Shown: one piece after another, positions 1 through 43,380 of the stretch
Position numbering within the stretch: the first letter of the stretch is position 1
Layout: each line of letters opens with the position of its first letter
The notes under the pieces: generated by a model
The model's input: only the letters and a program-made list of their open reading frames with translations
The model's database searches: none
Told to the model about the DNA's origin: nothing
Translations under genes and position numbers: made by a program
NCBI GenBank assembly: GCA_000004695.1
Contig: CM000151.3
Span: forward strand, 8,064,001-8,128,000
Reading direction: 5' to 3'
DNA length: 64,000 nt
DNA from: Dictyostelium discoideum
Lineage: Eukaryota

Positions 1-469
1 ATGTACCCTTTCAAAGTGTAAGTTATTTATAATAATTACCATTAAAAAAAATTTGACTGATAAAAATTAATATATATTTTTTTTTTTTTTGGTTAAATTT
101 TAATTTTAATTTAATAAATAATAATGGAACATCGAAAATCAAAAGAGTAAATTTTTGAATTTTTGAATTATTTAATATTTATTTTTATTTTTATTTATTT
201 TTTTTTTTCCTTTAATTTTTTTTCCTTTGTTTTTATGTATATTTACAAAAAAAAAAATATTAATAAAAAAAAAAAAGAAAAAAAAACCATTGATTAAAGA
301 AATAGATAAATTATTATAATTATTATTTGATTGTATTGTATTATATTGATTATTGTTAAATAAGTACATACAATCACCAACATACACACAAAAAAAAAAA
401 AAAAAAAAAAAAACCAACTCCACCACTTCAAAGGGGTACTAACCACTAAGCATACTGAGAAATAGAGAG

Positions 470-640
470 AGAAATAGAGAGAAAAAGAGATACACACACA
501 AACAACATAGATACTCACTCACACACACACACACGTTGACACACACTCACTCGCTCTCATATTATTTTTTCATTTAATAAAAACAGATACTCTCCCGTAC
601 ACACGGACACACTCGCACACACACATTTTTATTTTTTAAT
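470..640. repeat. CA-rich low-complexity block ((CA)n/(CACA) with CTCA interruptions)
   Basis: Runs such as cacacacaaacaac...cactcacacacacacacacg...cacacggacacactcgcacacacaca can be read directly in the sequence. They form a relatively GC-richer island in AT-rich spacer DNA. Confidence 0.8.
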
Positions 641-1279
641 AAAATTGAAAAAATATACATGTTCTCCTTTTCATTTCATATTTGTAAAAATTATTATTAT
701 TATCATTATTATCATTATTATCATTATTAATTTTTATTTAAATAAATACATCCACCACCTATATAATTTATATAATTTTAGTATGAAATTATTCCAATAA
801 TATTTTTTTTTTATTTATAGCTGATTGTAGAAGAGATGATATCAAAAATAGAAACAAACAAACAATAAAAAATAGTAATTTTTTTTTTTTTTTATTTTTG
901 GTTTTTATTATTTTTTAATTATTATTTAAATTATTATTTTTTTTATTTATTTTTTTCTTTTTTTAATTAAAATAATTTTTTTAATTTTTTTAATCAAATA
1001 CTAATTTATCTATTATATAAACTTTTTTTTTTTTTTTTTTTATTATTTGACATTCATTTAATTTAATCCAGTTTTTTTAAAATCTTGTTATAAATTAAAC
1101 CTTTTTTTTTGAAATAAAAAAAAAATAAAAAAAAAAAAAAGTTAAAATTTGTAAGTAATAGAATTTTTTTCATTTATTTATAATTTTTTTATAATTTTTT
1201 TTTTTTTTTTATTTATTATTAAAAAATAATAAATTTCATGTTCAAAATCTATTTATGTAATTAAAATTATAATTTTCAT

Positions 1280-1316
<37 letters not shown>

Positions 1317-1687
1317 TTTGATTTGTAAGTTAAATTATTGTTGGTAACAAAAATTATATATCCTTATTTTCAAAAAAATTAAAAAAAAAAAAAAAAAAAA
1401 AATTATTATTTTTTCCAATCCCATAAAATAGTGATTTAATATAATATATGATCAATATTTTTTTTCATTATTGATAAAATCTCAAAAAAAAATTAATAAT
1501 TTGTAAAAGATTTAAAGATTAATTTGGCGATACATCAACATCATTAAAATAATAAATCAATAAAAAAAAAAATTAAAAAATCAAAAAAAAAAAAAATTAA
1601 AATAATGATAATTTGGGAACAAAAATTGACAGCCAGAGATCATTTCAAGTGTTGGTTTTTTTTTTATTTTTATTTTTTTGGGTTTAT

Positions 1688-1727
<40 letters not shown>

Positions 1728-1800
1728 TGTTAGCTACATTGAATTTTGGTTTTATGTGCTTTTGGTGGTATTTAAAAAATAAAAAAAAAAAAAAGGATAA

Positions 1801-1880
1801 TTTAATATGGTGAGTGTGGTGGTGTGTTAAAGTTGTTTGTGGTAATGTGTGCTTTTTGTGTGTGAGTGTGTGTGTGTGAG
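1801..1880. repeat. GT-rich low-complexity block (inverse composition of the 470-640 block)
   Basis: The sequence reads gtgagtgtggtggtgtgttaaagttgtttgtggtaatgtgtgctttttgtgtgtgagtgtgtgtgtgtgag. It is the complement-type composition of the CA-rich block about 1.2 kb upstream. Confidence 0.8.
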
Positions 1881-2557
1881 ATATAGTGTGTATTATTTTT
1901 TTATTTTTATTATTTTTTAATTTATTTTTTTTTTATTTTTTTTTTGAATGTAATTACATATTTGTTTTTTTGTTGTTTCAAAATTGCCTTTTTATTATTT
2001 TTATTATTATTTTTTTAAAAAAAAACCAAAAAAATAACAGCTAAAAAAAAATACCAAAAACATATAATTTTTATTTTTATTTTTATTTTTTTTTTTTTTT
2101 ATTTTCCACTTTTTTATTATTATCATTATTTTTATTATTATAATTATTAAATTTGCAAACTATATTTTCTAAAGTTCACCATAAAAAATAAAATAAAAAA
2201 CATCCAAATCCTTTCAAAATACAACAATTTTCAAAAATTTTTTTCATTATTCCAAAAACATTTTTGATTTAATTATTAATATATTTTTATTTTATTTATT
2301 TTTTTTTTTTTTTAAATTTTATAATTATTTTTTTTTTATTTTTTTTTTAAAAAAAAATAAAAATTGTAAATTTGTAAAACTTAAAGTAGTTTAAAGTAGT
2401 CTCATTTAATTTTATTTTCTTTAAAAAAAAAAAAAAAAAAAAAAATAATTCCTAACTTTTTTTTTTTTATTATTTCTTAAATCCCATTTTTCCAAAAGTA
2501 AAAAAAATTTTCCAATATTTTTTTTTTTAAAATAAATTATACAAAAAAAAAAAAAAA

Positions 2558-4733
<2,176 letters not shown>

Positions 4734-4734
4734 G

Positions 4735-4786
<52 letters not shown>

Positions 4787-4927
4787 AAAACTAAACCAAA
4801 CCAAAGACTTTGTAAATAAAAACTTTAAATAAAAGTGATATATAATGAATTTTAATTTTTTTTTAAAATATCTTTTTAATTTTAATTTTTATTTTTATTT
4901 TTTTAAAAATATTTTCTTTTTTTATTT

Positions 4928-6071
4928 TTATTTACTATTATTAACAATTTCCTTAATTTCTATAATTTTTTAATAAAAAAATAAAATAAAAAAGTTTATT
5001 AGTTTATATATATATATATTTTTTGAAAAAAAAAACTTACTATTAAAAATTAAATTATATTGTTTTGTTGCTTCAGAATTTGGATGAGTTATTAAATAAC
5101 TTTTACCTTCATCACAAGAACGTGCAATTAATGGATCAATAGGTATACGACCCAAGAATGGTACATTCATATCTTGTGACATTTTTTCAGCACCACCAGT
5201 TGTTGGAATGAAAATTTGAGATTCTTTATTACATTTTGGACATACGAAACCAGACATATTCTCAACGACACCAATGATTGGAACACCCACTTTTTTACAG
5301 AAATTAATTTCCTTTCTGACATCGATTAATGCTACATCTTGTGGTGAAGTAACGATTACAGCACCTGATAAATTGGAAGTTTTCAAATATTGTACAATTG
5401 ATAAATGTTCGTCAGATGTGCCAGGTGGTGTATCGATGACAAGGTAATCCAAATCATTCCAATAAACATCTTTAAGGAATTGTTTAATTATACCATTCTT
5501 TTTTGGACCTCTCCAAATCACTGCATCCTCTTCTTTCTCCAATAGGAATCCGACTGACATCACTGCTAAATTGTCTTGAACATAAACTGGATCCCAGCCT
5601 TGACCACTGATATGAATGTTTTCACCCTCTAATCCCATTATCTTTGGTATCGATGGTCCACAAATATCAATATCCAATAATCCAACTTCAACTTTTTCAT
5701 CCATTGATAATGCAAAACTAAGTTGTGATGAAAATGTACTCTTTCCAACTCCACCTTTACCTGATAATACTAATATCTTATTTTTAACTGTTTTCATTCT
5801 TTCTTCAATTTCTATAATATCTGGATCTGGTCCTTTTGGTGCTGTTGCACAAATTTGCTTTAAAAAAAAAAAACAAAAAAAAAAAAAAAAACAAAAAATA
5901 AAAATTAAAAAATAAAAAAAATTAATATATTATATATAAATTTATATAATGTATTAATATCTAGAAACTTACTTGGTTTGGACAACCAGCGCATGCAGCT
6001 GATTTACCACTCATTTCACTTTGTGTACCAGGACAATTTTCTGGTGGTGGTGCAACTAATTGATCTGACAT
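4928..6071 (-). CDS. nubp1: Cytosolic Fe-S cluster assembly ATPase NUBP1/Nbp35 (Mrp/NBP35 family). Three exons: 6071..5973, 5857..5041 and 4959..4928.
   Basis: Exon 1 encodes [33 protein letters not shown], the N-terminal Cys cluster, followed by a GTAAGT donor. Exon 2 carries the Walker A motif [14 protein letters not shown], the CPxC motif (GFVCPKC) and Mrp-family blocks. It ends at AATA|GTAAGT. A short terminal exon follows a ttatag acceptor. The introns are poly-A/T rich. Confidence 0.8.
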
Positions 6072-6140
6072 TTCTTTTTTATATATTTTTTTATTATTTT
6101 ACAAAAATTATTATTTCTCTATTTATTGGGTAAATAAGAA

Positions 6141-6171
<31 letters not shown>

Positions 6172-6206
6172 GTTGAAAAGATTTTTTAAAATTAAAAAAT
6201 AAAAAA

Positions 6207-6245
<39 letters not shown>

Positions 6246-6249
6246 ATTT

Positions 6250-6283
<34 letters not shown>

Positions 6284-6409
6284 GGTTGTTGGTTTTGATA
6301 CCACATCATTTTTTACTCATCAAAGAATCTACATATTGTACATTATTTTATACATTTATATATTTTTATTCATCAAAGTAATATTATAATAAAAATAAAT
6401 ATATATTAA

Positions 6410-6878
<469 letters not shown>

Positions 6879-7307
6879 AAAACTTATAAATTATAAAAAA
6901 TAAAAATAAAAAATAATAATAATAATATAAAATATCAAGAGTTTAATATTTTTTTTATCAATCTCTTCAATGTACATATTTTCATTTTAAATTTATTGAA
7001 ATTTTAAAATTGGTTTAGATTTAAAAATTATTAAAGATTCATCAATTAAAAAAAAAAAAAAATAAAAAAAAAAAAAATAAAAAATAATATTATTAAAAAA
7101 AAAAAAATAAAAAAAAAATAAAAAAAAAAATAGGATTGATTTTAATCAATGTATTTTTATTTTATTGATTTGTAATTTCCATTAAAAAAGTTTCAACTGG
7201 ACGAGATAATTTACAATAGTCATGACAATAATCAGAGATAATTCTTGGATTTGTTAAAGAGGAATAATTTGAATTATTTGAACTATATTCAACATTTGTA
7301 GTTAAAT

Positions 7308-8669
7308 TTAATTGTTGAATATAGGTTGCACCATTATTTTACTGAATGCATTTCTATTGAAAACATTATCATGTTTTGCACCATTATAAGGTATCCATAA
7401 ACCTTCACAATAGAATTCTATTTGACTATGACAACCACAATCGGATATTGTAAAACCATCATCATCATCGGTATTTTCTAGTTTTCTAAATGATTTCTCA
7501 TGAATACTTCTACCACTAATATAACGAGTTGGTATATTATTATAACGAGTGATTGATGAAAAGAATGTACTAAAACTTCAAATCCGGTTTCCATAGATTT
7601 CAGTGCTTTTTGAGTACCAAATTTTACATTATAAACCATATGTTTCTTTATAAATAATGAAACTCTATAACAAAAACATAAAATTGATTCTTTTGTACCA
7701 TCATCGAATCTAATTGGTTCCAATTGATATTTTCTAATGAATTCTTGAAATTCAACTGAATCATGGTTACATAATTCGTCAGGTTTTGTATAAATAAATA
7801 TTTCTTGTTCTGAAATTGGTGTATATTCAACCTCTTCATCGTCATCATCATCAACTTCTTCCAATGCATTTGAATACATTTCAGCTTCAGTAATATGATA
7901 TACTGAAAAATTAAAACTATCATTATTATTATAATTTGATAAAATTGGTGGATTTGAATAATAAATTTTATAACATGGATATAAATTTGTAAGAATTTCA
8001 TTTGAATCGATTATTCTATTTGTTGATTCACAATGTAAATAAAATTTACTTGATGTAATATGTTGAGTTTGTATTGATTGTGGTTTATGCATATAAATAA
8101 TAAATTTGTTTAGTTGATTTAAATCTGGTTGATGGATGATTTTATTTTTTTTGATGTTTTTGTTTTCAAATGTCCATGTTTTCTTTACAGTATATCTAAT
8201 TGAAAATTTATAATTTCTATTAACTTTAAATCTTCTATTACACATTCTCTTGTGAGTTTCATGGTCATTCATTAATTCATCTATTGTTGGAATTTCTTTT
8301 GGTAATTTATATATCACTCTTTTTATATCTATAATATGAATTAACTGGAAATTGTGATACAATATCTCTTCCAACAATATTTGTAATTTGCATATTATTA
8401 TACATTAATTTTGAATATGTTAAATAAATAGGTTGTTTTTCTTTTTTTTCTTTTTTTTCTTTTTGTTGTTGTTGTTGTTGTGGATGTGGGTGTGGTTGTG
8501 ATGAATAGGTTGCTTTATTTTTTACAGTATATGAATAAGATGGAGGTGGTGAGTAAATTGGTGAGGATGAAACTGATAATGATTTTAATTTTTTAGTTAG
8601 TAATGATGTTTCTTGTTGTCGTTGGTGTTGTGATTGGGTTTCAATATTTGCCAATTGTTTTGGTAGTTT

Positions 8670-8722
<53 letters not shown>

Positions 8723-9049
8723 CTTGTTGTTGTTGTTCTTGTTGTTGTTGTTCTTGTTCACTTTGATAAGATTTTGATAAATTATTTAAAAAACTATTAT
8801 CATCCAAATAAATTTCTAAATATAATAATGTTGTTAATTAAGAGGTCTGTCTAACGAAAAAATCATTTAATTTAATTTTATTACAATACCTTTAATCTTG
8901 TCACAATAATTTGAAACTGATTCATTTAATCTTGATGAGTTTTCATATAAATTATTAAACTCTTTTTTTAATAGTACATAATTTGGATCCATTATAAGTT
9001 TTTTTTTTAAAGTGGGTCTGAAAATTGACACATGATTTTTTTTTTCCAA
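7308..9049 (-). CDS. PolyQ-containing protein of unknown function. Exon 1 is 9049..8890, followed by a 74-nt intron; exon 2 starts at 8815. The coding frame changes twice (near 8340 and near 7575), so this is a possible pseudogene or a sequence error.
   Basis: The 60-aa ORF at 8867..9049 ends at AAAG|GTATTG and splices in phase to an acceptor at 8816-8817, joining the 8307..8807 polyQ ORF (...DKIK/EIYLDDNSFLNNLSKSYQSEQEQQQQ...). The reading then continues in a +1 frame (7478..8377) and shifts again into ...RYISGRSIHEKSFRKLENTDDDDGFTISDCGCHSQIEFYCEGLWIPYNGAKHDNVFNRNAFSKIMVQPIFNN*. Both shifts sit in homopolymer runs (AAAAA near 8340, TTTT near 7575). Confidence 0.4.
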
Positions 9050-10595
9050 TCTTTCTACTATTTTAAAAAAAAAAAAAAAAAAAAAACTTAGAACGATTTT
9101 TATTTTTTATTTATAATTAAAAGATATATTCCCTCTCGTTGTTCCTCAAAATAAAAAAACCAATTACAAAAAATGGATGGTAAATAAAATTTTAAAATTA
9201 AAATTTTTGATAAAAAAAAAAAAAAAAAAAAAGAATGGTTTTAAAAAATTTTTTTTTAATTCTTTTTTTAATTCTTTTATTTTTTTAAAAACTTATATTA
9301 AGGAACATCAAAAAAAAAAAAAAAAAGTTAAAAAACAATTTTAATGCTTTTTTTTTAAAAAAATAAAAAAAAAAAATTAAAAAAAGAATTTTCTTTCTCA
9401 AAATAAATTCTTATTAATTAAATTAGTTATGTTTTTTTTTTTTATTGGATTGTTTGATTAGATTTTTTTTTTTTTTTTTACATTTGAATAATTTGATGCA
9501 TGTGGGTATTTTTTATTTACATTTTCTATTGGGAAATTATTTATTTGATTTGTAATATCATTCAACTGAACATTAAAAAAAAAAAAAAAAAAAAAATGAA
9601 AATAATACTTTAGTTTATCAATAAAAAAAATAAATAAAACTTCAATAAAAATAAAAATAAAAAATAAAAATATAAAATAAAAAAAAACATACTTTTTTTT
9701 TATATCTAATATCACTTTGGCGTCTCTATTTTTGTATACTTAATTCATATTAAAATCATTGTTAAAAAAAAAAAAAAAATCAAAAAAAATCAAGAAAAAT
9801 CAAAAAAATAAAATGAAAAAAAATAATACTTTAGTTTATCAATAAAAAAAATTAATTTATTAAATAATACAACATTAACCAATAAAAACAAAAAAAACAT
9901 ACAATTTTTTTTCTTTAGTTTTATTTTTTTTTATTTTTTTTTTTTTTTATTTTTTTTTTTTTTACTTAAACCTGGGAGATGACCAAAAAAGGAAAAAAAC
10001 AATTAATTTAAAAAAAAACCGTATTATGAGCATAGTGCAATATAAAGTTGCAGAATAGCTAAAATTCTATTTGACCAAAAATTTTGGAAACGATATGAGG
10101 TGTTAATTTAATTTTATTATCCCTATTTTTTAATTTTGGAGATTTGTTTTTCTATTTTTTTTAATTAATAAAAAAATAAAAAAAAAATATATAACAAACT
10201 TTTACCCGTAGTAGGCCGCTGACCGCTAGCTGGTGGTAGATGGTCCTTTTCAAACTCATGTTGGGAATTATAAAAATATAAAAAAAAAATATAAAAACCA
10301 AAAAGATTTTTTTTTTTTTTTTTTTTTTAATACAATTAATATGGCCCTTAATTTAATTTTATTTTCCCTATTAGGAGATTTAATTTTTCTAATAAAAAAA
10401 ATTTTAAAAAAAAATATAATAAATCAAACCTATGTTTCGGAATTATAAAAATAAAAAAAAAATAAAAACTAAATTGATTATTTTTTTTTTTTTAACTAAT
10501 TTCTATTTAAAAGGTTTTTTTTTTTTTTATTTTTTGGATTATTATTTATTTTAACTTATATATATATAGAATAAATAATACTTTTAATTAATTAG

Positions 10596-11565
10596 ATGGA
10601 TAAAATTAAAAATAATAATGAAAGTAATAATTTTAAATATTGTAAAGATTATAATATAAAAGAATTATTATTAAAAAGATTAAAATTAGATATCAACACA
10701 AAAATTCAAACTTTGGATGATATCTCAAAAATTCTTATTGTGTTTTCAAGGAAAATACCCTTTGATAGTTCTGATTTATTATTAAATGGATTTAAACCAC
10801 CTTTTTCAGTTGAAAATATTATAAAAAGAGTTTTAATTGATAAATTTGGTAATTATTATTATATAATTATTGTTTTTTAATTGTTTTCTAACTTTTTAAT
10901 TTAAAAAATTTAAAGGTAGTTATTGTATAAATTTAAATATTTTATTTGGATTATTTTTATGTGAAATGGGTATTGATGTTAAATTGATAAAAGGTATTGA
11001 AGGATCAACTTTATTCCAAAATCCATGGTTTCAAAAACATCATAGTAATATTATAAATTGGGAGAATAAATTATATTACCTTGATGTTGGATTTGGTTGT
11101 ATTACACCATTTAAACCACTTGAATTATTAAATGAAGAAACCATTAAAAATTATAATGAAAATGAAAATAAAAATGAAATTACTAATACTGTATATAGAG
11201 TTAGAAAATTAAAAAATGATGATGATAATGATGAATATTTATATGAAGAAAAAATAATTGATAAAACAAAACCTCAAAATCAATTATTTAGTCCAGTTTT
11301 TCATTTTAATTTATCACCTGCGACATATGAAATAATTGAATACAGTATTGAACAATATTCAAAATTTGATGTTGATAAAGTACTTTTATTTAAATTATTT
11401 AAAAAAGGAGGTTACCATTTATTTAAAGATAAACTAATAATTAGTTATTATGATGACAAAAATAACAATCAAATTAAAGAAATTAATGATAATATTACAT
11501 TTAATAATTATTATAAAACATTATTTTATAAAAAAAATAAAAATATTTTTATAAAAATTTATTAA
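10596..11565 (+). CDS. Arylamine N-acetyltransferase (NAT) family protein, tandem copy 1. Exons: 10596..10848 and 10916..11565.
   Basis: Splicing DKFG|GTAATT ... tttaaag|G joins the product to ...LIDKFGGSYCINLNILFGLFLCEMGIDV.... This matches the NAT catalytic-Cys motif RGGYCFELN. The later block NKLYYLDVGFGCITPF matches the NAT (Y/F)LVDVGFG block. Confidence 0.7.
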
Positions 11566-12553
11566 TTTAATTAAAATTACAAATATTTATTTTTACTATT
11601 AGAAAAAAAAAATCTAACCAAACTATCTGTTGTGCTCAAAAAAGCGAATTTATATTTCGATATTTTTTGGGATCTAAAATGAAAAAAAAGTATTTTTTTT
11701 TTTTGGTCACCTTGGTTGGAAATAATTTCTCTGGCGGTTTTCGTGTTTTATTTTTATTTTTTTTTTTTTTTTCACACTTAATTTTTTTACTTTCATTTTT
11801 TATTTATTTTCTGTAATTAATTATACATTTTATTTAAAAAAAGAGATTGAAAAAAGATAGAAAAAAAAAAAAAAAAGAGAAATTAAATGTGATCATTTAT
11901 TAGTTAAACATAAAAAGATTTTTCAATTATATTATATAATATATTATAATTAATTAAACCTATAAAGATTTTTGATTATATAATATTATATTTTACAATT
12001 AAAAAAAAAAAATTAAAATATACTTTCATTAACCAATAAAAATAAAAATAAAAAAAACATACTTTTATTTTTTTATTTTTTTTTTTTTATATTTTTTATT
12101 ATATTTTTTTTTATATTTTTTTTTTTATTTTTTTTTTATTAACACACACATATAAAAGTAAAGGGAACCTGTGACCAAAAAAGAAAATTACATTATTAAG
12201 AGAAAACGACTTGTATTATGAGCATTAAGTATAAGAAAGCTAAAAATTTTATTTTGACCAAAAATTTTTTTTTTAATTCCCAAAAACAATATGGTGTGTT
12301 AATTAAATTTTATTTTCCCTATTAGGAGATTTGTTTTTTCTAATATAAAAAATTTTAAAAAAAATAACAAATCAAACTTATGTTTCGGAATTATAAATAT
12401 AAAAATAAAAAAATAAAAACCAAATTGATTTTTTTTTTTTTTTTTTTTTTAATAACTAATTTCTATTTAGGTTTTTTTTTTTTTTTTTTTTTTTTGGATG
12501 ATTATTTATTTTAACTTATATATATAGAATAAATAATACTTTTAATTAATTAG

Positions 12554-13553
12554 ATGGATAAAATTAAAAATAATAATGAAAGTAATAATTTTAAATATTG
12601 TAAAGATTATAATATAAAAGAATTATTATTAAAAAGATTAAAATTAGATATCAACACAAAAATTCAAACTTTGGATGATATCTCAAAAATTCATATTGTA
12701 TTTTCAAGGAAAATACCCTTTGATAATTCTGATTTATTAATAAATGGATTTAAACCACCTTTTTCAGTTGAAAATATTATAAAAAGAGTTTTAATTGATA
12801 AATTTGGTAATTATTATTATTAAATTACTATTTTTTTAAAAAAGTAAACAATTATTTTCTAAATTTTAATTTAAAAAAAAATAAAAAAATAAAATAAAAT
12901 TAAAAGGTAGTTATTGTACAAATTTAAATATTTTATTTGGATTATTTTTATGTGAAATGGGTATTGATGTTAGATTGATAAAAGGTATTGAAGGATCAAC
13001 ATTATTAAAAAGTCCATGGTTTCACAACCATTTTAGTAATATTATATATTGGGAGAATAAATTATATTACCTTGATGTTGGATTTGGTTGTATTACACCA
13101 TTTAAACCACTTGAATTATTAAATGAAGAAACTATTAAAAATTATAATGAAAATGAAAATAAAAATGAAATTAATAAAACTGTATATAGAGTTAGAAAAT
13201 TAAAAAATGATGATGATGATGATGAATATTTATATGAAGAAAAATTTATTGATAAAATCAAACCTCAAAATCCATTATTTAGTCCAGTTTTTCATTTTAA
13301 TTTATCACCTGTTACATATGAAATAATTGAATATAGAGTTGAACCATATTCAAAATTTGATGTTGATAAAGTAATTTTAATTAAATTATTTAAAAAAGGA
13401 AGTTACCATTTATTTAAAGATAAACTAATAATTGATTATTATGATAATAATAAAAATCAAATTAAAGAAATTAACGATAATATTACATTTAATAATTATT
13501 ATAAAACATTATTTTATAAAAAAAATAAAAGTATTTTTATAAAAATTTATTAA
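12554..13553 (+). CDS. Arylamine N-acetyltransferase (NAT) family protein, tandem copy 2. Exons: 12554..12806 and 12907..13553.
   Basis: The structure and motifs are the same as copy 1 (GSYCTNLNILFGLFLCEMGIDVRLIKG, YYLDVGFGCITPF). The intron is 100 nt with a GTAATT donor and an aaaag acceptor. Confidence 0.7.
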
Positions 13554-13666
13554 TTTAATTAAAATTACAAATATATATTTTTACTATTATTATTGTTATT
13601 GTTATTATTATTATTATTATTTTTTTTTTTTTTTTTTTTTTTTTTTATTATTATTATTTTTTAAAA

Positions 13667-15208
13667 TTAATTTTGAATTATTTCTTCATCATTATCTTTA
13701 AATGGTTCATAATTATTATTTTCATTATCTTCATTATTAAATTCATTATAATCTGAAGAATTTATACCTTGATTTTCAATTAATGGTTTTAATAAATTTG
13801 AATATTGAGGATTTTCAATAGTTTCTTCACAATCATCAGATTGTTTAAAACTTCTACCAGTGATTTTTGCTAAGATGTTTCTAAAGATTGTACCCCAATT
13901 TTCACGAAGTAATTGATATAAAATGATAGAGACAAAAGTGGAAACACCAATTGCATCAATTTTAATTTTACCCCATTCAACATTTACACTAATCATACCA
14001 GTACCTAAAACAATTGAAATACCGGCAGTTAAAAGATTTCTTGGTTTTGAAAAATCAACTTGAGAATTAATCCAAAGTTTTGCACCAGTTATAGCAGTGA
14101 TACCAAATAAAACAATTGATAAACCACCGAAAATACCTGGAGGTATAGTTTGAACGATTGCGCCGAAAATTGGTAAACATCCCAACACAATTGCGATACA
14201 TGCAGCAAATACGAATGAAAGGGTTGAGAAAATCTTTGTTATACTCATTACACCAATGTTTTCAGCGTAGGTTGTTGTACCAGAACTACCAAAGAATCCG
14301 GCTAAAATACATGCCAATGCATCACCTATAAAAGTTCTACCCAATAAATTATCCATACTATATTCAGTCATTGATGAAACCGCTTTTAAGTGACCAATAT
14401 TCTCTGCAGCTAAAATTACGGCAACAGGTGCAATCATTGAAATGTAAGTTGAATCGAATGATGGTAAATGAGTTTGTGGTAAACCAATCCATTTTGCATC
14501 ACTTACTACACTAAAATCAATACCTGGTCCAACACCTCCCAATCCACATAATAAATAAACTACATATGATACAACCCCACCAATTAAAATGGGTAATCTT
14601 TTCAAAGGGCCAGGTGCATAACATGTAATCATCACTACCAAAAGTATGGTTAATGCAGCCATCCATGCATCAAATCCTGTGGTTGCAGCTTGACCAACTG
14701 CTGAATTTGCTAAATGGAGACCAATGGAAACGATAACGGATCCAGTTACAACGGGTGGTGTTAAAAATTCAATCCATGCATGACCTGCAACCATTACAAG
14801 CAATCCAATGGCTAAATAAATAAATCCACAAACTACAATACCACCTGCTGCTGGAGAAATGTTTGGATTCGTTGTACCAGGTGAATAAATATATCCAGTG
14901 GCTGAATTAACAACTCCAATGAATGCAAAAGATGATCCTAAATATGACGGTACCTTACCTCCAGTGCATACATAGAATATCAATGTACCAACACCAGAGA
15001 AAAATAATGCTGAATTTGTACTAAATCCCATCAATAATGGGCATAAAATATTACCTCCAAACATTGCTAAAATATGTTGAAATGATAAAAAAAATGATGG
15101 TATAATTGGTATTCTTTCATCTGGCATAATAGGTATATCACTAGTATTTTTTAATTTATATTTTGGAAAATAATCCAAAATCATTATTTTTATATTTTCC
15201 CACATCAT
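13667..15208 (-). CDS. Nucleobase:cation symporter-2 (NCS2) family permease (xanthine/uracil permease-like)
   Basis: This is a single 513-aa ORF with multiple TM helices. It carries NCS2-like blocks (QHILAMFGGNILCPLLMGF, GVGTLIFYVCTGGKVPSYLGSSFAFIG, AENIGVMSITKIFS) and a low-complexity acidic/Asn tail. Confidence 0.8.
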   Translation of the reverse strand: MMWENIKIMILDYFPKYKLKNTSDIPIMPDERIPIIPSFFLSFQHILAMFGGNILCPLLMGFSTNSALFFSGVGTLIFYVCTGGKVPSYLGSSFAFIGVVNSATGYIYSPGTTNPNISPAAGGIVVCGFIYLAIGLLVMVAGHAWIEFLTPPVVTGSVIVSIGLHLANSAVGQAATTGFDAWMAALTILLVVMITCYAPGPLKRLPILIGGVVSYVVYLLCGLGGVGPGIDFSVVSDAKWIGLPQTHLPSFDSTYISMIAPVAVILAAENIGHLKAVSSMTEYSMDNLLGRTFIGDALACILAGFFGSSGTTTYAENIGVMSITKIFSTLSFVFAACIAIVLGCLPIFGAIVQTIPPGIFGGLSIVLFGITAITGAKLWINSQVDFSKPRNLLTAGISIVLGTGMISVNVEWGKIKIDAIGVSTFVSIILYQLLRENWGTIFRNILAKITGRSFKQSDDCEETIENPQYSNLLKPLIENQGINSSDYNEFNNEDNENNNYEPFKDNDEEIIQN

Positions 15209-15324
15209 TTTTTCTTATTTATAATATATAAAATATAAATATATATATAAAATTTATATTATTTATATTTATTATTTTTTTTTTTTTTTTGATGTTGATA
15301 TCTTTTTAACAGGGTTTTGAAGTG

Positions 15325-15383: not shown

Positions 15384-15827
15384 TATATCTTTTTAACAGG
15401 GTCTTGGAGTGAAAAAAAAAAAAAAAATAATAATAATGCCGATGACGAAAAAAGTTTTATAAGTTTATAAAGCTCGGATAAAAAATCTTTTGACGGGCTT
15501 GTTTTGAAATTAAAATAATAAAAATAAAAACCTGGTATTCATTTTTTTTTATTTTATTTTTAATATTTTTAAATTGTTTTTTTTTTTTTTTTTTTTTTTT
15601 TAAGATATTTGCAAAACACCAAACCTGACAAAAAAAAAAAAAAAATATTTTCATTTTTTTTTTTTAGCAACTGAATAATTTTATTTATTTTTAATGTGGA
15701 TTTAGTTTTCAGAAATAGAGGATTAAAAAAATAAACAAAATGATATAAAATATAAACAAAATTAAAGTATACATTCTGATCTAAATTTTTTTTTTTTTTT
15801 TTTTATAATTATTATTATTATTTTATT

Positions 15828-18800
15828 TTAATTTGCGCTTGAAGAAAATCTTTGAAGTTTTCTTTTTAATGGGGCTTCAACAAATCTTTTTTTGTAAATT
15901 ATGAAAACAATAGCAATAATTGCAGCTAGACCTCCAACTGGAACAGCGATCACAACTGGTAAAAACCATGACTCACGATTATTATCATCACATTCATCAA
16001 TGAATTCAGGACTAATCAATACAGAGAAGTCAGGATCTAATAAACATTTCTTTGTACAATGAGGTAAATTCATACCAACTGTAATTGAATCATTTGATTT
16101 TGATACTAACACAGTTTGCATAAATGTTGATATACCATCACTTTCGATTCTGTCTATAAATCTACCATTTAAAACTTTTGCATCTTTTTTAATAGCTATA
16201 TAATTTAATGAATTATCTTGATTTGGTGTACTATTAATTTCAATTTGATCATCATTACAATCATTTTCATTATTTGTTTGAATTTCATTTACACTTGATT
16301 TCATTTGTAATTGTAATGTATTTAAATTACTTGAATATTGATAATTTTCAATTGATACTGTCATTTTAACTGATCCACTTGTTAATTTAAAATTAATGCC
16401 TGCAAATGATACATCTCTATCTTTATTAATTTCTTCAATTGTATATGTGATATTACATTTATCATTTTGAATTGATTGAATGAATGTGTAAACTGTTTTA
16501 CTAATATTTGAAATTATTGACCATTTATTTAATAATAGATACTCATTGATTTGATTACCATTGAAATCTATCTCTATTAATTTTGTAATTAAAATTTGAT
16601 AATTTGTTTGTTGATTTGTAATATTTGTATTACCAGTATTACCATCTATTGTTGTATTAGATCCTGGTAATCCACCACTATTATCGCCACCACCACTTGG
16701 ATTTGAATATAAACTACAATCATAACCGCTCCATCTTCCAATACAATTACAATATCCAGTTGTTGTATTACAAATACCATTTGATGTCGATGTACAATGA
16801 TTTGGACATTGTTTATCATTTGAATAATATTGATAAATATCTTTTGATGTTACGTTGATTGAATTTTGAATTACACTTACTGATTTTAAACCTGTACCTG
16901 GTGGTGCTTTACAAATAATTTCACTTTCAGATATATTATAAATTGGTATACATTGTTTATTACCAATGAAAACTTGTGGATCAGTATGATTATTACCAAA
17001 CCAACCATAAATTGAAGCGCTACCACCATTGGTATCACTTGGTGAAACTGCTGATATTGTATGTAATGGAATTGAACAATCAATACCAATCCATTCGTAA
17101 GGAGTGATTGGGCATGAACAAATACCAGTCTGATTATTACATTGACCAATATTATTACAATTATTTAAACATTGTTTAAATGGGATTGAGCAATCATCAC
17201 CTTGATGGTTTGAATCACATTTACATTGACCAATATCAGATAAACAGTAACCATTACCATTACAATCATTATAATTTTCAGAACAATTTAAAATTACATT
17301 TATTCCACTTGGATTTAAAGTGAATTGCGTCGTTAAACCTCCAATTGTAATATATGATAAAATATCCTCCAAAGATGGGTCTACCACACTAGAAATTGTA
17401 CAGTATATTTGATAAAATGATGTACTTGAAACTATACAATTATAATTACCAATAGTAATGTTTACAATTGATTGATTAAAAGTAAAGAATGAACCATCGA
17501 AAATTAAACTACTTGAACCCAATACCCAATCTACCATTTCTAATCTTGGTGGTATATCTTGAGTTGACAATGGGAATATATAATTTGGATTGTTACTATA
17601 TATCAAGTAAACAATTGGTGGTGGTTTTATGGTTGTGATTGCACTTATTATTTTATTTGGTTTTATTACTTTGATATCAAATCTGTCTCCATTTTCAGTA
17701 ACTAGAAAGTTTGAGTTAACCCATGAACCACCTATATTTTCACCAAAAATATAATATTCATATTCGACATAATACATTGAATAATTATATATATTTACGA
17801 GTCTAAGATTTGGAATAATAATACCTTTTAAAAAATTTGTTATTATTTTTTGATAATTTATTGTTAAAAATTGTATTTTTAATTATGAAAAAAAAAAAAA
17901 AAAAAAAAAAAAAAGAATTTTTAAACTTACTTGGTGAAGATGGTTGATTCAAATTTGAAAAAGAATTACCAATGAATCTAGATTCTAAATCTATATTAAC
18001 TAATCCAAAGAAACATGTAAAACATGATGGAATTAATCCAGTCATTGAGTTATTACTTACAATTAAATCTAATTCACAATATGAATCATCAATTGTTCCA
18101 GTTATTTGATTAAAACTAATATCGATGCTTGTTAATTTATTATTAATTGTTCTATTGAAAATTGGTAAAGAACCTGACATTACATTATCGACTAAATTTA
18201 ATTTTTTAACATTTGTAAATAATGAAAAATCAAATGTTTCAATATATGCATTTTTGAGGGTGAACTCTTCAAATTTTTCATTTGTTGGTAAAATAAAAGG
18301 AAGTGAACCACCAAATGTAAAACCTCTACCAGTATCTTTAAAAATTAATTCTTTCATTGATTTACCAACTAATGATAAATCAATTAAAGATGGTGGGCTT
18401 AAAAGTAGTGTTCTTTCAAATTCACTTTTTTTTTTTTTTTAGTGTTAGCTATTTTCAATTATCCAATTAATAAATCAATATAAACACAAATAAAACTTAC
18501 ATTCTTGTTAAATTTTCAGCTCTAATTTGTGAAAATTCAATTGATGGGAAATTTATCTCATCATATACCTGAATTGATAAAGTATTTAAACTTTCACACT
18601 GAGTAATATTAATCCATGAAGATTGGTCAAAACCTGGAAGAAGAACAAGTTGGAAATATGCATTTATATATTTAAATGAAGGTACATTTAAGGATACAAC
18701 TTTAATATAAGATGGATTCCATATGAAGGTTCCATCTAGATCATTTTCAAAATAAATTAAATGAGATCCTATTCCAATAATACTTGAAGTTTGTATTGAT

Positions 18801-20185: not shown

Positions 20186-20435
20186 TTTAGTAATCACCAA
20201 TAATATTATTATAAAACTTAAAAAAATAAAGTTGGTTTTAATTCATAATATTCGTTGTTTTTTTTTTTTTTTTTTTTTTTTTACATTAATGAGTAGATCT
20301 ACGAATATTTTGTTTTGCGCTTGGGATGCAGTAATGAATCTTAGCTATTTGAATTTTAATTTCTTTTTTTTTAAAGTTATTACATTTCTAAATGGGATTC
20401 GATCCCTTGACCCAAAGTTTTATTTTTAAAAAAAG

Positions 20436-20506
20436 TGCCGCGACCTGGAATCGAACCAGGGTCAACAGAGCCACAATCTGATGTACTACCACTATACTAT
20501 CACGGC
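20436..20506 (-). tRNA. tRNA-His (anticodon GTG)
   Basis: The minus-strand sequence is GCCGTGATAGTATAGTGGTAGTACATCAGATTGTGGCTCTGTTGACCCTGGTTCGATTCCAGGTCGCGGCA (71 nt). It has a cloverleaf and a canonical GGTTCGATTCC T-arm. Its acceptor, D-arm and anticodon loop (TTGTGGC) are near-identical to eukaryotic tRNA-His-GTG. Confidence 0.85.
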
Positions 20507-20555
20507 GAATTTTGATATTTTTTCAAAAAACTGCTCACACCGATTTTATATTTTT

Positions 20556-20617
<62 letters not shown>

Positions 20618-21299
20618 CCGAAAACATTCTTTCAGGGAATTTCCAGAATTTTAAATTTTTAAAGTCGAATAAAGATTTTAAAGAAAAAAAAAGAAATGAA
20701 TAAATTGGCAAATACAATAATGACAGAATCAACAGAAACATTGGCAGATAAAATCAAGAAATCAAATGAACTCAGAACAAAGTTCAAATATTTAAAAAAT
20801 ACGTACAGAACACTTGATAAAATAAGCGAAGCAATATACCACACTCAAATTGAACTAAAACAATCACAGCAAAGAAAAATGCACCTTTAAAGCAAATTTA
20901 AAGAAAAGTTGATTTAAATTGGATTTAAATTGAATTTAAAGCCGCGTTTAAAAAATTCATTTTTAAGGTAATTTTTAAGGTAATTTTTAAGATATTTAAA
21001 AATGCCTTTAAAATTTGCTTTAAAATAAATTTTTAAGCAATTTTAAAGGTGATTTTAAAGGTGATTTTAAAGGTGATTTTTAAGGTAATTTTTAAGATAA
21101 TTTTTAAGATATTTAAAAATACCTTTAAAATTTATTTTAAATTAATTTTAAATAGGATTTAAAGTAGATTTAAAGTATATTTAAAGTGAATTTAAATTTC
21201 CTTTAAACATAAATTTAAGGTTTTTAATAAAAAAGATCTAATTTTAGAACAAAAAAATGGGGATAAAATATTCTATCATTTTTAAATTTTTCATCAAAG

Positions 21300-21440
21300 C
21301 AATCAAATGGTTTAATGGTTGATGAGACTACCCTTTGATAGAGGGTCGGGGGATCGAATCCCTTTTGGTAATTTTTGAAAAATTAAAAAAAAAATTTTTA
21401 AAAAATTTATCCGTTAAATAACGGCTTCGAACTCAGGACC
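21300..21440. other. tRNA-like fragments embedded in the retrotransposon 5' region (not a functional tRNA call)
   Basis: The plus-strand segment gtttaatggttgatgagactaccctttgatagagggt folds as a D-arm plus an anticodon arm (loop TTGATAG). The T-arm-like GGGGGATCGAATCCC is degenerate and no acceptor stem pairs. A second fragment is an imperfect hairpin, ccgttaaataacgg. These may be remnants of the tRNA target or part of the element's B-module. Confidence 0.2.
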
Positions 21441-21621
21441 TCGCTTTTAAAGCCATTAAAAAGGTAATTTTAAAGGTAATTTTAACGGCGTTCTAAAGAC
21501 CCCCTAAAAATTACCTTTAAAATTACCTTTAAAATTTTTTTAATTCAGGACTTTAAAGCAAATTTAAATTTAATTTAAAGCGAATTTAAAGGTGGTTTTT
21601 TCTTCGCTGTGATATAAATTC

Positions 21622-22803
21622 ATGATCAATATCCCAGATGAGATATCCAACAACTTGAAAGCAGAATTGGAAATCCATTTACAAGGAGATGATAAGATAA
21701 TAACAAGTAAGAATAAATTCAAAATCCTCACGGACTGCAGAACTCAAGTAATCAAGTACTCTAACGTTTTCAACGGAGTACTAAAAGGAGTTCACAGAGC
21801 AATAATAAAACCAAAAAAGATCTTCAAAACATTCAACTGGGAAAAATCAATGGACATAGTAGAAAAAACATTGCATGAAGAAGGACTGGAAATAATCAAA
21901 TTAGATAATTTAGGTGAAAACCTGATAATACACTCATTCAACTCAATTATCAGTCCAGAGCACAAAGACCAGCTAATACATTGTAAACACATAACAATAC
22001 TATTCCTCACTACAACAGAAGAAACAAAAAATCAAAGAAAAACAAATAGGGAAATCGAAGACGAAATCTCAGAAAACTCAAAAATCACGGAACTACCAAA
22101 TTCCGAGACAAAGGAAAACACAAGAATAAACATAAAATCAAAAGAAGAATTCAATCATAAAAACACTAGCGAATCAAAAAATAACAACAAAAACAAAATA
22201 GAAAACAAAAAAGAAAATAATAAAGAAATCAATAATGAAAACATCAAAGACAAGAGCAAAAACGAAAAAGTAAAGGAAAAAGAAATTGAAAATAAAAAAC
22301 CCACAACAATTAGAGCAACAACAACAACCACAACGACAGAAACGACAAATACAATAAACAATATTGAAAAGAGAAAAGTACTTCGTATCCCACCAATAAC
22401 AGTAACATATAGTGTTGACAGCAAAGAGAAAAGGAGAATGGAGTTAACTGAAGATGAAGAAGCATTAGAAGTGGTAAGAAAGATGTTCGAAAATGAAGAA
22501 GAGAACAGAATTTTTGAAGAAAAAATAAATAACCAAAAAAAGAAGGAAACCCCAAGGTTAGCCTCAATCAAAAAAAGACAAACAATGTCACCTATCCAAA
22601 ATTCAGAATCTCCAGCAACGCCAGAGATAGTAAAAAGAAAAAGATTCAACTCATCTCCAAACCCAACAACTAATCACCAAGAAATTTTAACACCTTACAA
22701 AACTCCAATTAAAATAACAAAGGAAGAATCAGATTTAATGGAAGCAGCACTAAGAGACAAATTGCCCAAAGTACTCCAAGACGTACTTCCATCTGTCTCA
22801 TTT

Positions 22804-22809
<6 letters not shown>
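21622..22809 (+). CDS. Retrotransposon ORF1 (nucleic-acid-binding, Lys/Glu/Asn-rich)
   Basis: A 395-aa ORF lying immediately upstream of ORF2 and separated from it by a poly(A) stretch. Its composition is typical of LINE ORF1. Confidence 0.55.
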
Positions 22810-22853
<44 letters not shown>

Positions 22854-22856
<3 letters not shown>

Positions 22857-25802
22857 ATAAAAATAATGACCTGGAATTGCCAAGGTTGCTCAACAATCAA
22901 AAGCATGAATCAGACAAAAAATACAATTAACCTAATAAAACCTGATATATCAATACTAACAGAAACAAATCTAAAAAAGGATCAAAATCTAGCGCAAATC
23001 AAAAACCATTACTCAACAGGAGGAAAAGGAAAAGAAGCAAGAGGAAAAGGAGTAATGGCAATAAATCACCTAGAACAAATAGAAATTAAAAACTTGGAAG
23101 AAAAAGAAGGCAGAATCTTAAAATTTACTGCAATTCTAAACAATACGGAAATCAACATAATTGGCATCTATGCACCAGCCTCATATGACAGAAGAAAAGG
23201 ATGGTTTTCAAACAATATTTCCCTTGGAGATCTAGAACAGGCAGACATAGTTACTGGTGACTTTAACATCAACAAATATGCAAAAATCAAGTTCAAAGAT
23301 GGATCATCCGATAAGAGAAAATTCACAGAAAATGAAACAATAGAATTCCTAATGATGGAAGTAGGACTCACCGAAATACTACCAAATTCAACAACTAAAA
23401 CAACCTTCAAAGATAAACTAATCGATAGAACATTCTTATCAACAAAGATGCACCAACTCAATCACTCGTACAAGATAATAGATAAAATAAACAAATCAGA
23501 CCATAACATAGTAGTGATGGATTTCAAAATACCAAATTTCACAAAAATATACAAATCACCCCTATGGAAAATGAACTCAATAATAATTAAAGAAGATAAA
23601 ACAATAAAAAAGATAGAAAAAATAATCGACCACTACCAGGAAACCAAAAGAAAAAACCTTAACATAACGGAATACTGGATTAAGTTCAAAAAAAAAATAA
23701 AAAAACAATGCATTACAACAGAAAAGAAAAGAATACTAGAGAGAAAAAAAACGCTATCAAATCTAGCAAATGAACACACAAAAACAAAAAACAAATATGA
23801 AAAAGAAACAATATCGAACGAAATAACAATACTTCAAGAAGAAGAAAGAATAGACAGAATGATCAAAAGCTCAATCAACTACATCAACAATAAAGAAATA
23901 GCATCAAATCTCCTTACATCTATTCTTAAAAAAAGAGACTCGAGCTCCCAGATTCACAGAATAAAGAACCCATCCAATGGAGAAATCGAAACAGAACAAA
24001 AAGAAATAACAGATTGCTTCAGAAAATATTACGAGACACTCTTCAAAGAGAAAGAATGCGACCAAGAAACACATACAGAACTTCTAAGCACCTGGAACCC
24101 ACCAATAGATAAAAAAAAATTAACAGAGATGGAAGACAGAATCGAAGAATATGAGGTTAAGCTAGCAATAGAAAAGATAGCAGAAGGTAAATCACCAGGA
24201 GAAGATGGAATAACATCTTCATTCTATAAAATCCACCAACACAAACTAATTCCAATCCTCACAGAACTATTCAACTTCTTTTTAAACAATGAAATTCCAA
24301 CAGAATTCAAGAACGGTATCCTTACATCAATATACAAAGGTAAAGGGGATGTCTTGGAAATCTCAAACAGAAGACCAATAACGTTACTCAACGTAGACTA
24401 CAAAATCTACTCAAAAATAATCAACAATAGAATACTAAAAATCCTGCCAAACATAATCTCAAAGTACCAGAACGGTTTTATACCAGGAAGGCTACTCCAC
24501 AACAACATTATAGCTTTGGATTTAGCAATGGAAAAGAGTGATAGAAACACGATAATCACCTTTTATGACTTCGAAAAAGCCTTCGATTCAATATCTCATA
24601 AAGCGTTAATAAGGACTCTAAACCATCTAAAGTTCCCTCGGAAAATAACAAACACAATACTAAGCATGTTAACGAACACCAACATAAGGGTCATGGTAAA
24701 TGGACAACTCTCTGAATCCTTCAGAGCAGGAAGAGGTACAAAACAGGGCGACCCAATTTCACCAACTCTCTTCGCTATAGTATGTGAATGCTTATCAACA
24801 TCAATAAGAAAAGACAATACCATAATAGGCATAAAACTCAATCAGAACAATTCGATGAAGATTGGACAATATGCAGACGACACAGTCACACTAGCCAGTA
24901 ACATAGATGACGCAGATAAAATGGATATGAAAGTTATAAAATTTTGCCAAGCCACAGCAGCAAAAATAAACGATAATAAATGTGTGTGCATCACTAAAAA
25001 CCCAAAGATAAAGACCAAATATAAGACAATTGGGGCGAAAGAAGAAGAAAGATATCTTGGCTTTTTCTTCAACCGCAAAGGTGTAATAAGCAAAGTAGAT
25101 GATACGGTGAACAAACTGGAAAACCTCACAAAATGCTATTCGAGCGTGTCATCAACGCTAAAAGGTAGAATCACAATCCTCAAATCATACCTGCTGTCCC
25201 AACTAACATTCCAACTATACATCAACGAAATAAATGACATAAAGAAACTGGAGAACGTTAATGCCAACATGTTATTCAAAGGGGACAGGTGGGCTATCTC
25301 AAAAGAAAGGAGCAGAAGAGACTATGAAATTGGAGGCCTGGAACTCTGGAATATGGCAACCAGATCCAATGCCCAGAAAGCATGGATATACGAACAATAC
25401 CTCAGAGAAAAAGACGACCAGAACTGCCCTCCACATATGGAAGTCTGGAAGTCGGAAAAAGAAAACTCACTATCAAGGATTCACATCAAATGCTGGAAAG
25501 CCTGGAAGTTGTTGCACCACCCAAGAGAGCGAATAACTCTCAAACTAAACCAAGTCAAACCCAAATATGAAAACAAACAAAAATTAAAAGTAATCTATAG
25601 AAACATGATGGATATCAAATACAAGGGATGGAACAAACACCAGCCAACAACAGGTCAAAAACTGATTCAAAAGAACATTAATCACCCAATTCTACCATTT
25701 AGAGAAGCCAGATCAATCACAACTATCAAAGGAAGAGACTTAGCATGGAGGTATCTACTCAAGGCACTTCCAAAACACCATGGGGAGAATTGCCACTTGT
25801 AA
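22854..25802 (+). CDS. Retrotransposon ORF2: apurinic-type endonuclease plus reverse transcriptase
   Basis: A 982-aa ORF. It has an EEP/APE-like N-terminus, RT motifs (PGRLLHNNIIALDLAMEK; FYDFEKAFDSISHKALI; GTKQGDPISPTLFAIV; QYADDTVTLA) and a C-terminal Cys/His-rich segment (HHGENCHL). Confidence 0.85.
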
Positions 25803-26281
25803 AGAAGAAGAGTCGTCTATGCACATCTTCTTCGAATGCAAATCAATAAAACAGGATATCGACTCAATCTATCAAAAGGTCTGTAAAGACTCTAACAACA
25901 CTTACCACGGTCCATGGAGCGAAAAAGTTCTCGGAAAACTACTCACACCATTCTCATCAAATCTGATAGGAGCCATTATGGAATCGATATGGTACAGAAG
26001 AAATCAAATAAAATTCAACGATAACACTACAATAATAACAGAGAACCAAATAATTCATAAAATCAAAAAAGCGAGAGATGCCGAATGGGATAGAACAAGA
26101 AAGATAGTAGAAAAGCAACTACGTCAAGAACTAAAATGCACTGATAACCGAGAGTCAATCAATCGGACCGCATCAATAAAAAGAAGACTCGAAAAATTCA
26201 GCCACAACTGGAACTCGAAACTCATGACCATAAACATCCCGGAACACTTCATACCATACTGCTCATATAACACCAACTACT

Positions 26282-26286
<5 letters not shown>
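25780..26286 (+). CDS. Retrotransposon 3' ORF. This is a possible out-of-frame continuation of the ORF2 C-terminal Cys-rich region.
   Basis: A 168-aa ORF that overlaps the ORF2 stop. It contains CKEEESSMHIFFECKS and ends in the duplicated 3' module. It may indicate a frameshifted, non-autonomous copy. Confidence 0.3.
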
Positions 26287-26318
<32 letters not shown>

Positions 26319-26382
26319 ATAACAATAATAATAATAACAATAATATAATAATAATATAATAATAATAAAAAAAAAAATAAGA

Positions 26383-26416
<34 letters not shown>

Positions 26417-26676: not shown

Positions 26677-26717
<41 letters not shown>

Positions 26718-26890: not shown

Positions 26891-26924
26891 AAAAAAAAAA
26901 AAAGTTTGTTTACAATTATTTTTA

Positions 26925-29032: not shown

Positions 29033-29086
<54 letters not shown>

Positions 29087-34948: not shown

Positions 34949-34992
<44 letters not shown>

Positions 34993-43337: not shown

Positions 43338-43380
<43 letters not shown>

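Follow-up and report, generated by a model that had tools for sequence, protein, structure and literature searches.

Genes for arylamine N-acetyltransferases (NATs) recurrently expand by local duplication, with the paralogues diverging near the active site, as in the human NAT1/NAT2/NATP cluster and in other lineage-specific clusters. Here we describe a NAT locus of Dictyostelium discoideum that lies within a 64,000-nucleotide stretch of contig CM000151.3 (assembly GCA_000004695.1, positions 8,064,001 to 8,128,000 of the forward strand), referred to as the window and used for all coordinates below. An initial annotation of this stretch had proposed a tandem duplication carrying two NAT genes, with an insertion upstream of the first one. 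Our analysis indicates that the locus is very probably a young tandem NAT duplication specific to the D. discoideum lineage, in which the upstream blocks shared by the two copies are residual homology and the extra sequence of copy 1 stems from later events. Compared with the human NAT1/NAT2/NATP cluster, the D. discoideum pair is much younger (synonymous divergence, dS, of ~0.06), and has its members 1 kb apart.

The NAT genes of D. discoideum have already been catalogued in surveys of the family (PMC11213898). The best protein match to the locus is the D. discoideum UniProt entry D8FSX1, 'Arylamine N-acetyltransferase 6', with 100% identity over the shared part, followed by one protein each from D. 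citrinum (70%) and D. dimigraforme (66%). The gene features that we assigned are the following:

10596..10848, + strand: NAT copy 1 exon 1, codons 1-84 plus 1 nt, 98.4% identical to 12554-12806
10849..10915, + strand: NAT copy 1 intron, GT..AG, 67 nt; 89.4% identity and 3 indel events relative to the copy 2 intron
10916..11565, + strand: NAT copy 1 exon 2 including the stop codon, product of 300 residues
10924-10926, 11038-11040 and 11083-11085, + strand: NAT copy 1 triad codons for Cys88, His126 and Asp141, respectively
12554..12806, + strand: NAT copy 2 exon 1
12807..12906, + strand: NAT copy 2 intron, GT..AG, 100 nt
12907..13553, + strand: NAT copy 2 exon 2 including the stop codon, product of 299 residues

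Each gene contains a single GT-AG intron at the same codon position (phase 1, within Gly85), which confirms the identical exon-intron structure noted initially. Both reading frames are intact, and the two copies are 90% identical in protein and 95.5% in DNA. The products matched the PF00797 profile with 62.7 and 67.3 bits (E = 5.7e-17 and 2.3e-18; cut-off 22.8). Matches to NAT structures in the PDB included 4dmo (E = 6e-16) and 3lnb (E = 1e-12), the identity to solved structures being 15-21%. In the alignment to 4dmo, Cys88 (in F-G-S-Y-C) corresponds to the catalytic Cys, His126 to the catalytic His, and Asp141 (in L-D-V-G-F-G) to the acidic residue of the triad. These three residues are invariant in both copies and in both orthologues; among 52 distant homologues that we aligned, His126 is invariant, and Cys88 and Asp141 are at least 90% conserved. 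An AlphaFold2 model from a 52-sequence alignment reached a predicted local distance difference test (pLDDT) score of 87.6 and a predicted template modelling (pTM) score of 0.89; it replaced an earlier model from a 4-sequence alignment, which was unusable (pLDDT 43.7). The best 40 PDB matches of the model in a Foldseek search were all NAT-fold enzymes of bacterial, human or fungal origin (E = 2.6e-15 to 2.6e-11; target-normalised TM, TMt, 0.63-0.82). Both the NAT fold and the catalytic Cys are thus present, and the assignment to the NAT family made in the initial annotation stands.

Based on sequence and model, both copies encode intact single-domain NATs of ~300 residues. They share with the solved PF00797 enzymes 4DMO ((BACCR)NAT3), 3LNB (B. 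anthracis NAT C), 1GX3 (M. smegmatis NAT) and 2PQT (human NAT1) the domain match, the three-domain fold and the aligned catalytic residues. They differ from solved NATs by a low-complexity loop rich in Asn, Asp and Glu at residues ~160-190 (pLDDT 53-76), a feature that is typical of Dictyostelium proteins, and by the motif around the Cys, which reads F-G-S-Y-C rather than the R-G-G-x-C usual in NATs. By analogy with the mechanism of the family, the enzyme would transfer an acyl group from acyl-CoA to an arylamine or hydrazine via an acyl-Cys88 intermediate, with Cys88 activated by His126 and Asp141; the enzyme activity and its substrates are predicted only. Several of the differences between the copies are clustered around the catalytic His, where copy 1 reads FQNPWFQKHH and copy 2 reads LKSPWFHNHF.

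Next we delimited the duplicated units by comparing the window with itself, and assigned the following features:

9854..11601, + strand: duplication unit, copy 1, comprising the upstream region, the NAT gene and 36 bp of 3' flank; collinear with 12010-13589
11602..12009, + strand: spacer between the units, unique AT-rich sequence with a 49-bp tandem repeat (2.1 copies) at 11899-12002
12010..13589, + strand: duplication unit, copy 2, in the ancestral position and adjoining a permease gene, as judged from the collinear alignment and from the order at orthologous loci, where a NAT is followed by Xan_ur_permease on the minus strand

Copy 1 (10319-11601) and copy 2 (12265-13589) are 90.3% identical over 1334 alignment columns. 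From one start to the next, the units are 1958 bp apart when measured at exon 1, and 1988-1991 bp apart at exon 2 and the 3' end, in agreement with the tandem duplication of ~1.96 kb that had been proposed. Aligning the two units, a check that the initial annotation had recommended, yielded collinear homology from ~9854 and ~12010 at the upstream side (alignment score 162; shuffle mean 15, maximum 36) through 11601 and 13589 at the downstream side. The homology of copy 1 to copy 2, as well as to D. citrinum, ends exactly at 11601. By segment, the identity between the copies amounts to 98.4% in exon 1, 94.6% in exon 2, 89.4% in the intron, 94.4% in the proximal and 91.6% in the distal upstream region, and 97.2% in the 3' flank. 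Two adjacent units that are collinear over coding and non-coding parts alike identify the arrangement as a tandem duplication.

Besides the units, we observed a repeat of ~221 bp upstream of copy 1 (at 9355, 9575 and 9796), in addition to a 245-bp repeat described below. The intergenic DNA between the divergent upstream gene and the first NAT (8991-10595) measures ~1.6 kb, compared with 468 bp in D. citrinum (L001 9534-10000). The NAT locus has evidently undergone repeated local duplication.

The age of the duplication was assessed with the orthologous loci of D. citrinum (L001) and D. dimigraforme (L002) as outgroups. Each of them contains a single NAT followed by a Xan_ur_permease gene on the opposite strand, and the same permease gene occupies 13667-15208 on the minus strand of the window. 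In blastn comparisons, window positions 353-9006 were collinear with L001 1-9546, and two window segments, 10470-11601 (copy 1) and 12422-15288 (copy 2 together with the permease), both mapped to one L001 interval starting at 9886. Identity is 90% between the NAT copies, compared with 71-73% between them and either orthologue. The presence of a single copy at the syntenic site of the outgroups, the mapping of both copies onto the same L001 interval and the greater mutual similarity of the paralogues therefore place the duplication in the D. discoideum lineage, with copy 2 in the ancestral position.

We envisage an ancestral locus with one NAT gene arranged tail-to-tail with a xanthine/uracil-family permease gene. 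A segment of ~1.6-1.75 kb, which began ~550-740 bp before the ATG and extended 36 bp beyond the stop codon, would then have been copied, copy 2 retaining the ancestral place. The most likely mechanism would be replication slippage or unequal recombination within intergenic DNA that is very AT-rich and laden with repeats. By the Nei-Gojobori method, the copies differ by a dS of 0.057 and a nonsynonymous divergence (dN) of 0.044, a ratio of ~0.77. For the 30 differing residues (29 substitutions and one single-residue indel), polarisation by both outgroups assigned 10 derived states to each copy and left 10 ambiguous. Judged by sequence, neither copy resembles a pseudogene in decay; both seem to have kept their function and to be diverging symmetrically under relaxed constraint. 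The pair is a clean case of a very young NAT duplication (dS ~0.06, dN/dS ~0.8) with several substitutions close to the catalytic His, and is of possible interest for the evolution of NAT substrate specificity.

Upstream of its gene, copy 1 carries sequence that copy 2 lacks, and this sequence resolves into three features:

10093..10337, + strand: sub-repeat 1a, the additional copy, on the upstream side, of a proximal promoter segment duplicated locally in tandem (245 bp); copy 2 has one segment only
10200..10250, + strand: 51-nt insert, found in sub-repeat 1a only, TTTT-ACCCGTAGTAGGCCGCTGACCGCTAGCTGGTGGTAGATGGTCC-TTTT, with a 43-nt core of 63% GC
10338..10500, continuing to the ATG, + strand: sub-repeat 1b, the gene-proximal copy, orthologous to 12289-12450 of copy 2

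To derive these assignments, 10091-10347 and 10330-10595 were each aligned to the one corresponding segment of copy 2, 12280-12553. The period is 245 bp. Identity to copy 2 amounts to 91% for sub-repeat 1a and to 94% for sub-repeat 1b (94.4% by segment), and that between 1a and 1b to 88.7%. The block TCCCTATT..GGAGATT occurs at 10103-10147, 10348-10381 and 12299-12332, as expected from the local repeat of the TCCCTATT block seen by the initial annotation. The ~190 bp of extra sequence placed by it at 10140-10330 do exist, but their bounds need revision, since the local duplication spans 245 bp from 10093 to 10337. Nor is this sequence an insertion as a whole: only the 51 nt at 10200-10250 are non-homologous, the rest being promoter repeat. 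Accordingly worded as a model, a 245-bp local tandem duplication of a proximal promoter segment would have given rise to 1a and 1b after the gene duplication, and a single non-homologous, GC-rich insertion of 51 nt into 1a would have followed.

The insert stands out by its composition. Its 43-nt core contains 27 G+C against an intergenic background of 14% (binomial P = 2.5e-13), and the 42-mer originally highlighted (10205-10246) occurs nowhere else in the window. Only 10 windows of 40 nt in the 64 kb have a GC content of at least 55%, and the insert is the only one between 633 and 20430; it had been correctly recognized as the sole strongly GC-rich stretch of the area. Because sub-repeat 1b, copy 2 and both sister species are devoid of the 51-mer, one insertion into 1a is the parsimonious reading. 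Most likely, the 51-mer would represent filler or captured DNA at a repaired break. We found neither a target-site duplication nor inverted ends, and the sequence gave no match in a full-text literature search.

Several observations weigh against the reading of the locus as a young duplication with later additions to copy 1. First, sub-repeat 1a resembles copy 2 (91%) at least as closely as it does 1b (88.7%), and these comparisons, with small counts of 15-19 differences each, do not fix the order of events. Second, the spacer at 11602-12009 contains no open reading frame (ORF) and shows no significant similarity to 9007-9853 or to the intergenic region of D. citrinum. With no counterpart detected upstream of copy 1 or in D. 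citrinum, the spacer either postdates the duplication or speaks against a simple head-to-tail copy made in one step; a one-step duplication does not account for its 408 bp, which would require insertion at a later time, extensive gain and loss of bases by indels, or an event of greater complexity. Third, exon 1 (98.4%) is less diverged than exon 2 (94.6%), so that partial gene conversion may have occurred and the duplication may be older than its dS suggests. Fourth, a dN/dS of ~0.77 by itself is no proof of purifying selection on both copies. Finally, no donor was found for the 51-mer, and filler DNA is a default explanation rather than a demonstrated origin.

As an alternative to filler DNA, the 51-mer could be a fragment of a mobile element or the retro-inserted 3' end of an RNA, given that the minus strand reads the fragment and then AAAA. 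The sequence CAAAC is present on both sides, both insert ends carry short T/A runs, and a tRNA-targeted non-LTR (non-long terminal repeat) retrotransposon lies 11 kb away. The apparent 5-bp target duplication, however, pre-exists, as the empty sites in copy 2 and 1b read CAAATCAAAC and TAAATCAAAC; there is no terminal inverted repeat; and a word-7 blastn search detected no similarity of at least 11 nt elsewhere in the 64-kb window, the retrotransposon included, or in 42 kb of the two sister-species loci. The specific scheme of a retro-insertion consisting of target-site duplication, fragment and A-tail was rejected because the empty sites already carry a (C/T)AAAT-CAAAC near-repeat. We therefore regard a mobile origin as unlikely, and retain a single insertion of filler or captured DNA as the default reading.

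The upstream blocks that the initial annotation had singled out as conserved belong to the distal part of the units. A gapped alignment of 9854-10092 with 12010-12288 yielded 91.6% identity of aligned columns, with 88 gap columns in 25 indel events; the collinearity runs through CATTAACCAATAAAA, AAAACATAC, GGGA..TGACCAAAAAAG, GTATTATGAGCAT, AGCTAAAA, TTGACCAAAAATTTT and ATATG..GTG. This identity is no higher than the neutral level, as given by the intron (89.4%) and by synonymous sites (dS 0.057). Alignment with the upstream DNA of the D. citrinum and D. dimigraforme orthologues was possible over no more than ~125 bp adjoining the ATG. Global alignments of the remaining upstream DNA to both sister promoters gave z values of 2-3.4 only, and a faint resemblance of the blocks to D. 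citrinum (TTAAT..ATGGC..TTAA and AGGA..TTTTTCTA) was unconvincing. As judged from these sequences, the blocks are residual homology of the duplication. They would match since they have not yet diverged, and A/T runs between them would have gained and lost bases, so that words containing G or C stand out; the blocks look like islands because the A/T runs between them expanded and contracted. Some promoter function of this DNA is likely because it lies upstream of genes. More generally, indel turnover in AT-rich intergenic DNA makes residual homology mimic 'conserved blocks', which calls for caution in scans of the D. discoideum genome.

One word within this region deserved separate attention as a candidate regulatory site:

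9980-9989 (+ strand), 10072-10081 (+ strand), 11700-11709 (- strand), 12172-12181 (+ strand) and 12255-12264 (+ strand): TGACCAAAAA motif

The shared blocks could be selected cis-regulatory elements that co-regulate both NATs, with TGACCAAAAA, W-box-like in its TTGACC form, as the candidate. All five exact copies of the word in the 64 kb are located at the NAT locus, 1.06 being expected, and 1 of 100 shuffles reached this number. Three copies are independent of the gene duplication (two per unit and one, inverted, in the spacer), and the blocks precede each ATG by 330-620 bp, the expected place of a promoter. Against selection on these sites, the block identity of 91.6% does not exceed that of the intron or of synonymous sites, one-mismatch variants are not enriched in the window (22 found, 26 expected), and the NAT genes of D. 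citrinum and D. dimigraforme lack TGACCAAAAA in their upstream DNA. Moreover, the two copies per unit are embedded in a larger pattern, TGACCAAAAA ... ATATGAG, pointing to local duplication at an earlier time and not to selection of the motif, and the binding factor is a guess on our part. We thus consider this explanation quite doubtful and favour residual homology. It is a still longer shot that TGACCAAAAA is a real binding site of a NAT-specific regulatory module and that the 245-bp sub-duplication together with the GC-rich insert gave copy 1 an expression distinct from that of copy 2; if true, this would be a case of early regulatory subfunctionalisation of a xenobiotic-metabolising enzyme pair. 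Literature text matches to TGACCAAAAA concern what we take to be the Folmer COI primer HCO2198. A link of the spacer to COI was rejected: TTTTTTGGTCACC resembles the HCO2198 primer site, but the translated spacer contains nothing COI-like beyond FFGH.

The public record presents the locus as one gene encoding a two-domain NAT of 487 residues. This entry, (DICDI)NAT6 or D8FSX1, covers the same locus and sequence, yet it fuses the two units and truncates both C-terminal domains: it consists of residues 1-239 of copy 1, residues 1-239 of copy 2 and 9 extra residues, and its second half reads G-N-Y-C instead of G-S-Y-C. In favour of the fused model is its place in the public record. It needs a 1174-nt intron (11380-12553) that ends right at the ATG of copy 2, plus a 28-nt intron (13371-13398). 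It also drops ~60 C-terminal residues per domain that are conserved in the orthologues of 295 and 285 residues and that fold as the third NAT domain, and it disregards that each unit has its own promoter-like region and stop codon. A single fused gene is accordingly highly improbable, and the evidence from sequence and modelling supports two separate genes of 300 and 299 residues. The public 487-residue 'NAT6' model should probably be split into two genes of ~300 residues each. Neither our NAT models nor the fused model nor the neighbouring permease are among the called genes of the contig collection. With the locus already in UniProt, the finding is an ordinary one, and the only unexplained item is the 51-nt insert.

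A small non-coding RNA (ncRNA) gene, located either in the blocks (~10015-10090 and 12208-12275) or in the GC-rich core at 10200-10250, is extremely improbable. In its favour, the composition of the GC-rich island resembles that of small RNA genes in this AT-rich genome, the only comparable islands nearby being tRNA sequences, and the blocks occur in both units. Rfam scans of the blocks, however, returned no family at gathering score, nor at E <= 10 in small windows, the remaining matches being at chance level (E >= 0.47, with scores far below gathering), and a small-window scan of the 51-mer, which followed the suggestion to compare the GC-rich segment with ncRNA sets, retrieved no family either. 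A consensus fold of the two block copies contained 0 predicted pairs (with two sequences only), and the 51-mer folded no better than shuffled sequences (z = +0.11 on the plus and +1.76 on the minus strand). The Dictyostelium upstream sequence element (DUSE; WCCCAYAA, ~60 nt upstream) is a mark of Dictyostelium ncRNA genes. We did not find any DUSE within 8 kb of the locus, and only three are present in the window (at 1419, 22299 and 40651). The GC-rich core is, in addition, absent from 1b, copy 2 and both sister-species loci. There is therefore no evidence for an ncRNA, and the idea that the blocks are shared promoter elements or a small ncRNA, as raised in the initial annotation, found no backing in identity, fold or motif.

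Hardly credible, finally, is an origin of the GC-rich segment from a cloning vector, an adaptor, a bacterial contaminant or an assembly artefact: its 63% GC are foreign to the locus and it includes a GCTAGC (NheI) site, but blastn matches of the 51-mer to plasmids were at chance level (best E = 0.4, coverage of at most 47%), none were obtained in 5,426 E. coli genomes or in phages, exact 20-24-mers were missing from prokaryotic species genomes (185,579 genomes for 22-24-mers), viral contigs and Joint Genome Institute (JGI) metagenomes, and the segment is seamlessly embedded in a repeat copy whose flanks stay in register. By these sequence comparisons, the 51-mer is not vector or bacterial contamination, the objection that could have overturned the initial description of the segment.

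The window as a whole is AT-rich (14-30% GC), with long A/T runs and short AT-rich introns, and contains further duplications. Five ComC-like paralogues with 80-93% DNA identity are located at 15763-18455, 26905-29594, 33923-37655, 39273-41864 and 42309-46066. Some of them form a tandem array at 35-46 kb whose period is ~4.2 kb, two adjacent copies are also found in D. dimigraforme, and the domains annotated in the sister species are LRR_ComC, EGF and ComC_SSD. Another tandem duplication of ~90% identity comprises 50686-53154 and 53291-55653, with ORFs at 50749-52806 (685 residues) and 53341-55332 (663 residues) that have no Pfam match. Given these other duplications at similar identity, the 90% NAT pair is unremarkable in this window.

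A tRNA-His (GUG) gene is located at 20435-20506 on the minus strand, with a B-box-like sequence, GGGATTCGATCCC, just downstream (20394-20406) and a run of 57 A residues at ~20558-20614. The tRNA-His segment (20395-20530) is inverted relative to D. citrinum (L001 18037-17907), the flanking genes being collinear. A degenerate tRNA-like sequence at 21301-21371 (+ strand) scored 20 bits, below the Rfam threshold. The adjacent ORFs of the non-LTR retrotransposon are at 21622-22809, 22854-25802 (RVT_1, E = 4e-37) and 25780-26286, followed by a direct repeat of ~370-390 bp (26103-26472 and 26498-26883, 93.5% identical). The element as a whole (20380-26900) has the appearance of a TRE-type element targeted to tRNA genes.

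In D. dimigraforme, the upstream neighbour of the NAT is replaced by a called gene of 209 residues (L002 8871-9693) that has no Pfam match on record and, from its sequence, looks like a retroelement fragment. At the other end of the window, positions 490-630 contain CA-rich, relatively GC-rich tracts (for example ACAGATACTCTCCCGTACACACGGACACACTCGCACACACACA at 583-625) in AT-rich intergenic DNA, within a block that is collinear with D. citrinum; these tracts could be a C/A-rich regulatory element (G/T-rich on the other strand).

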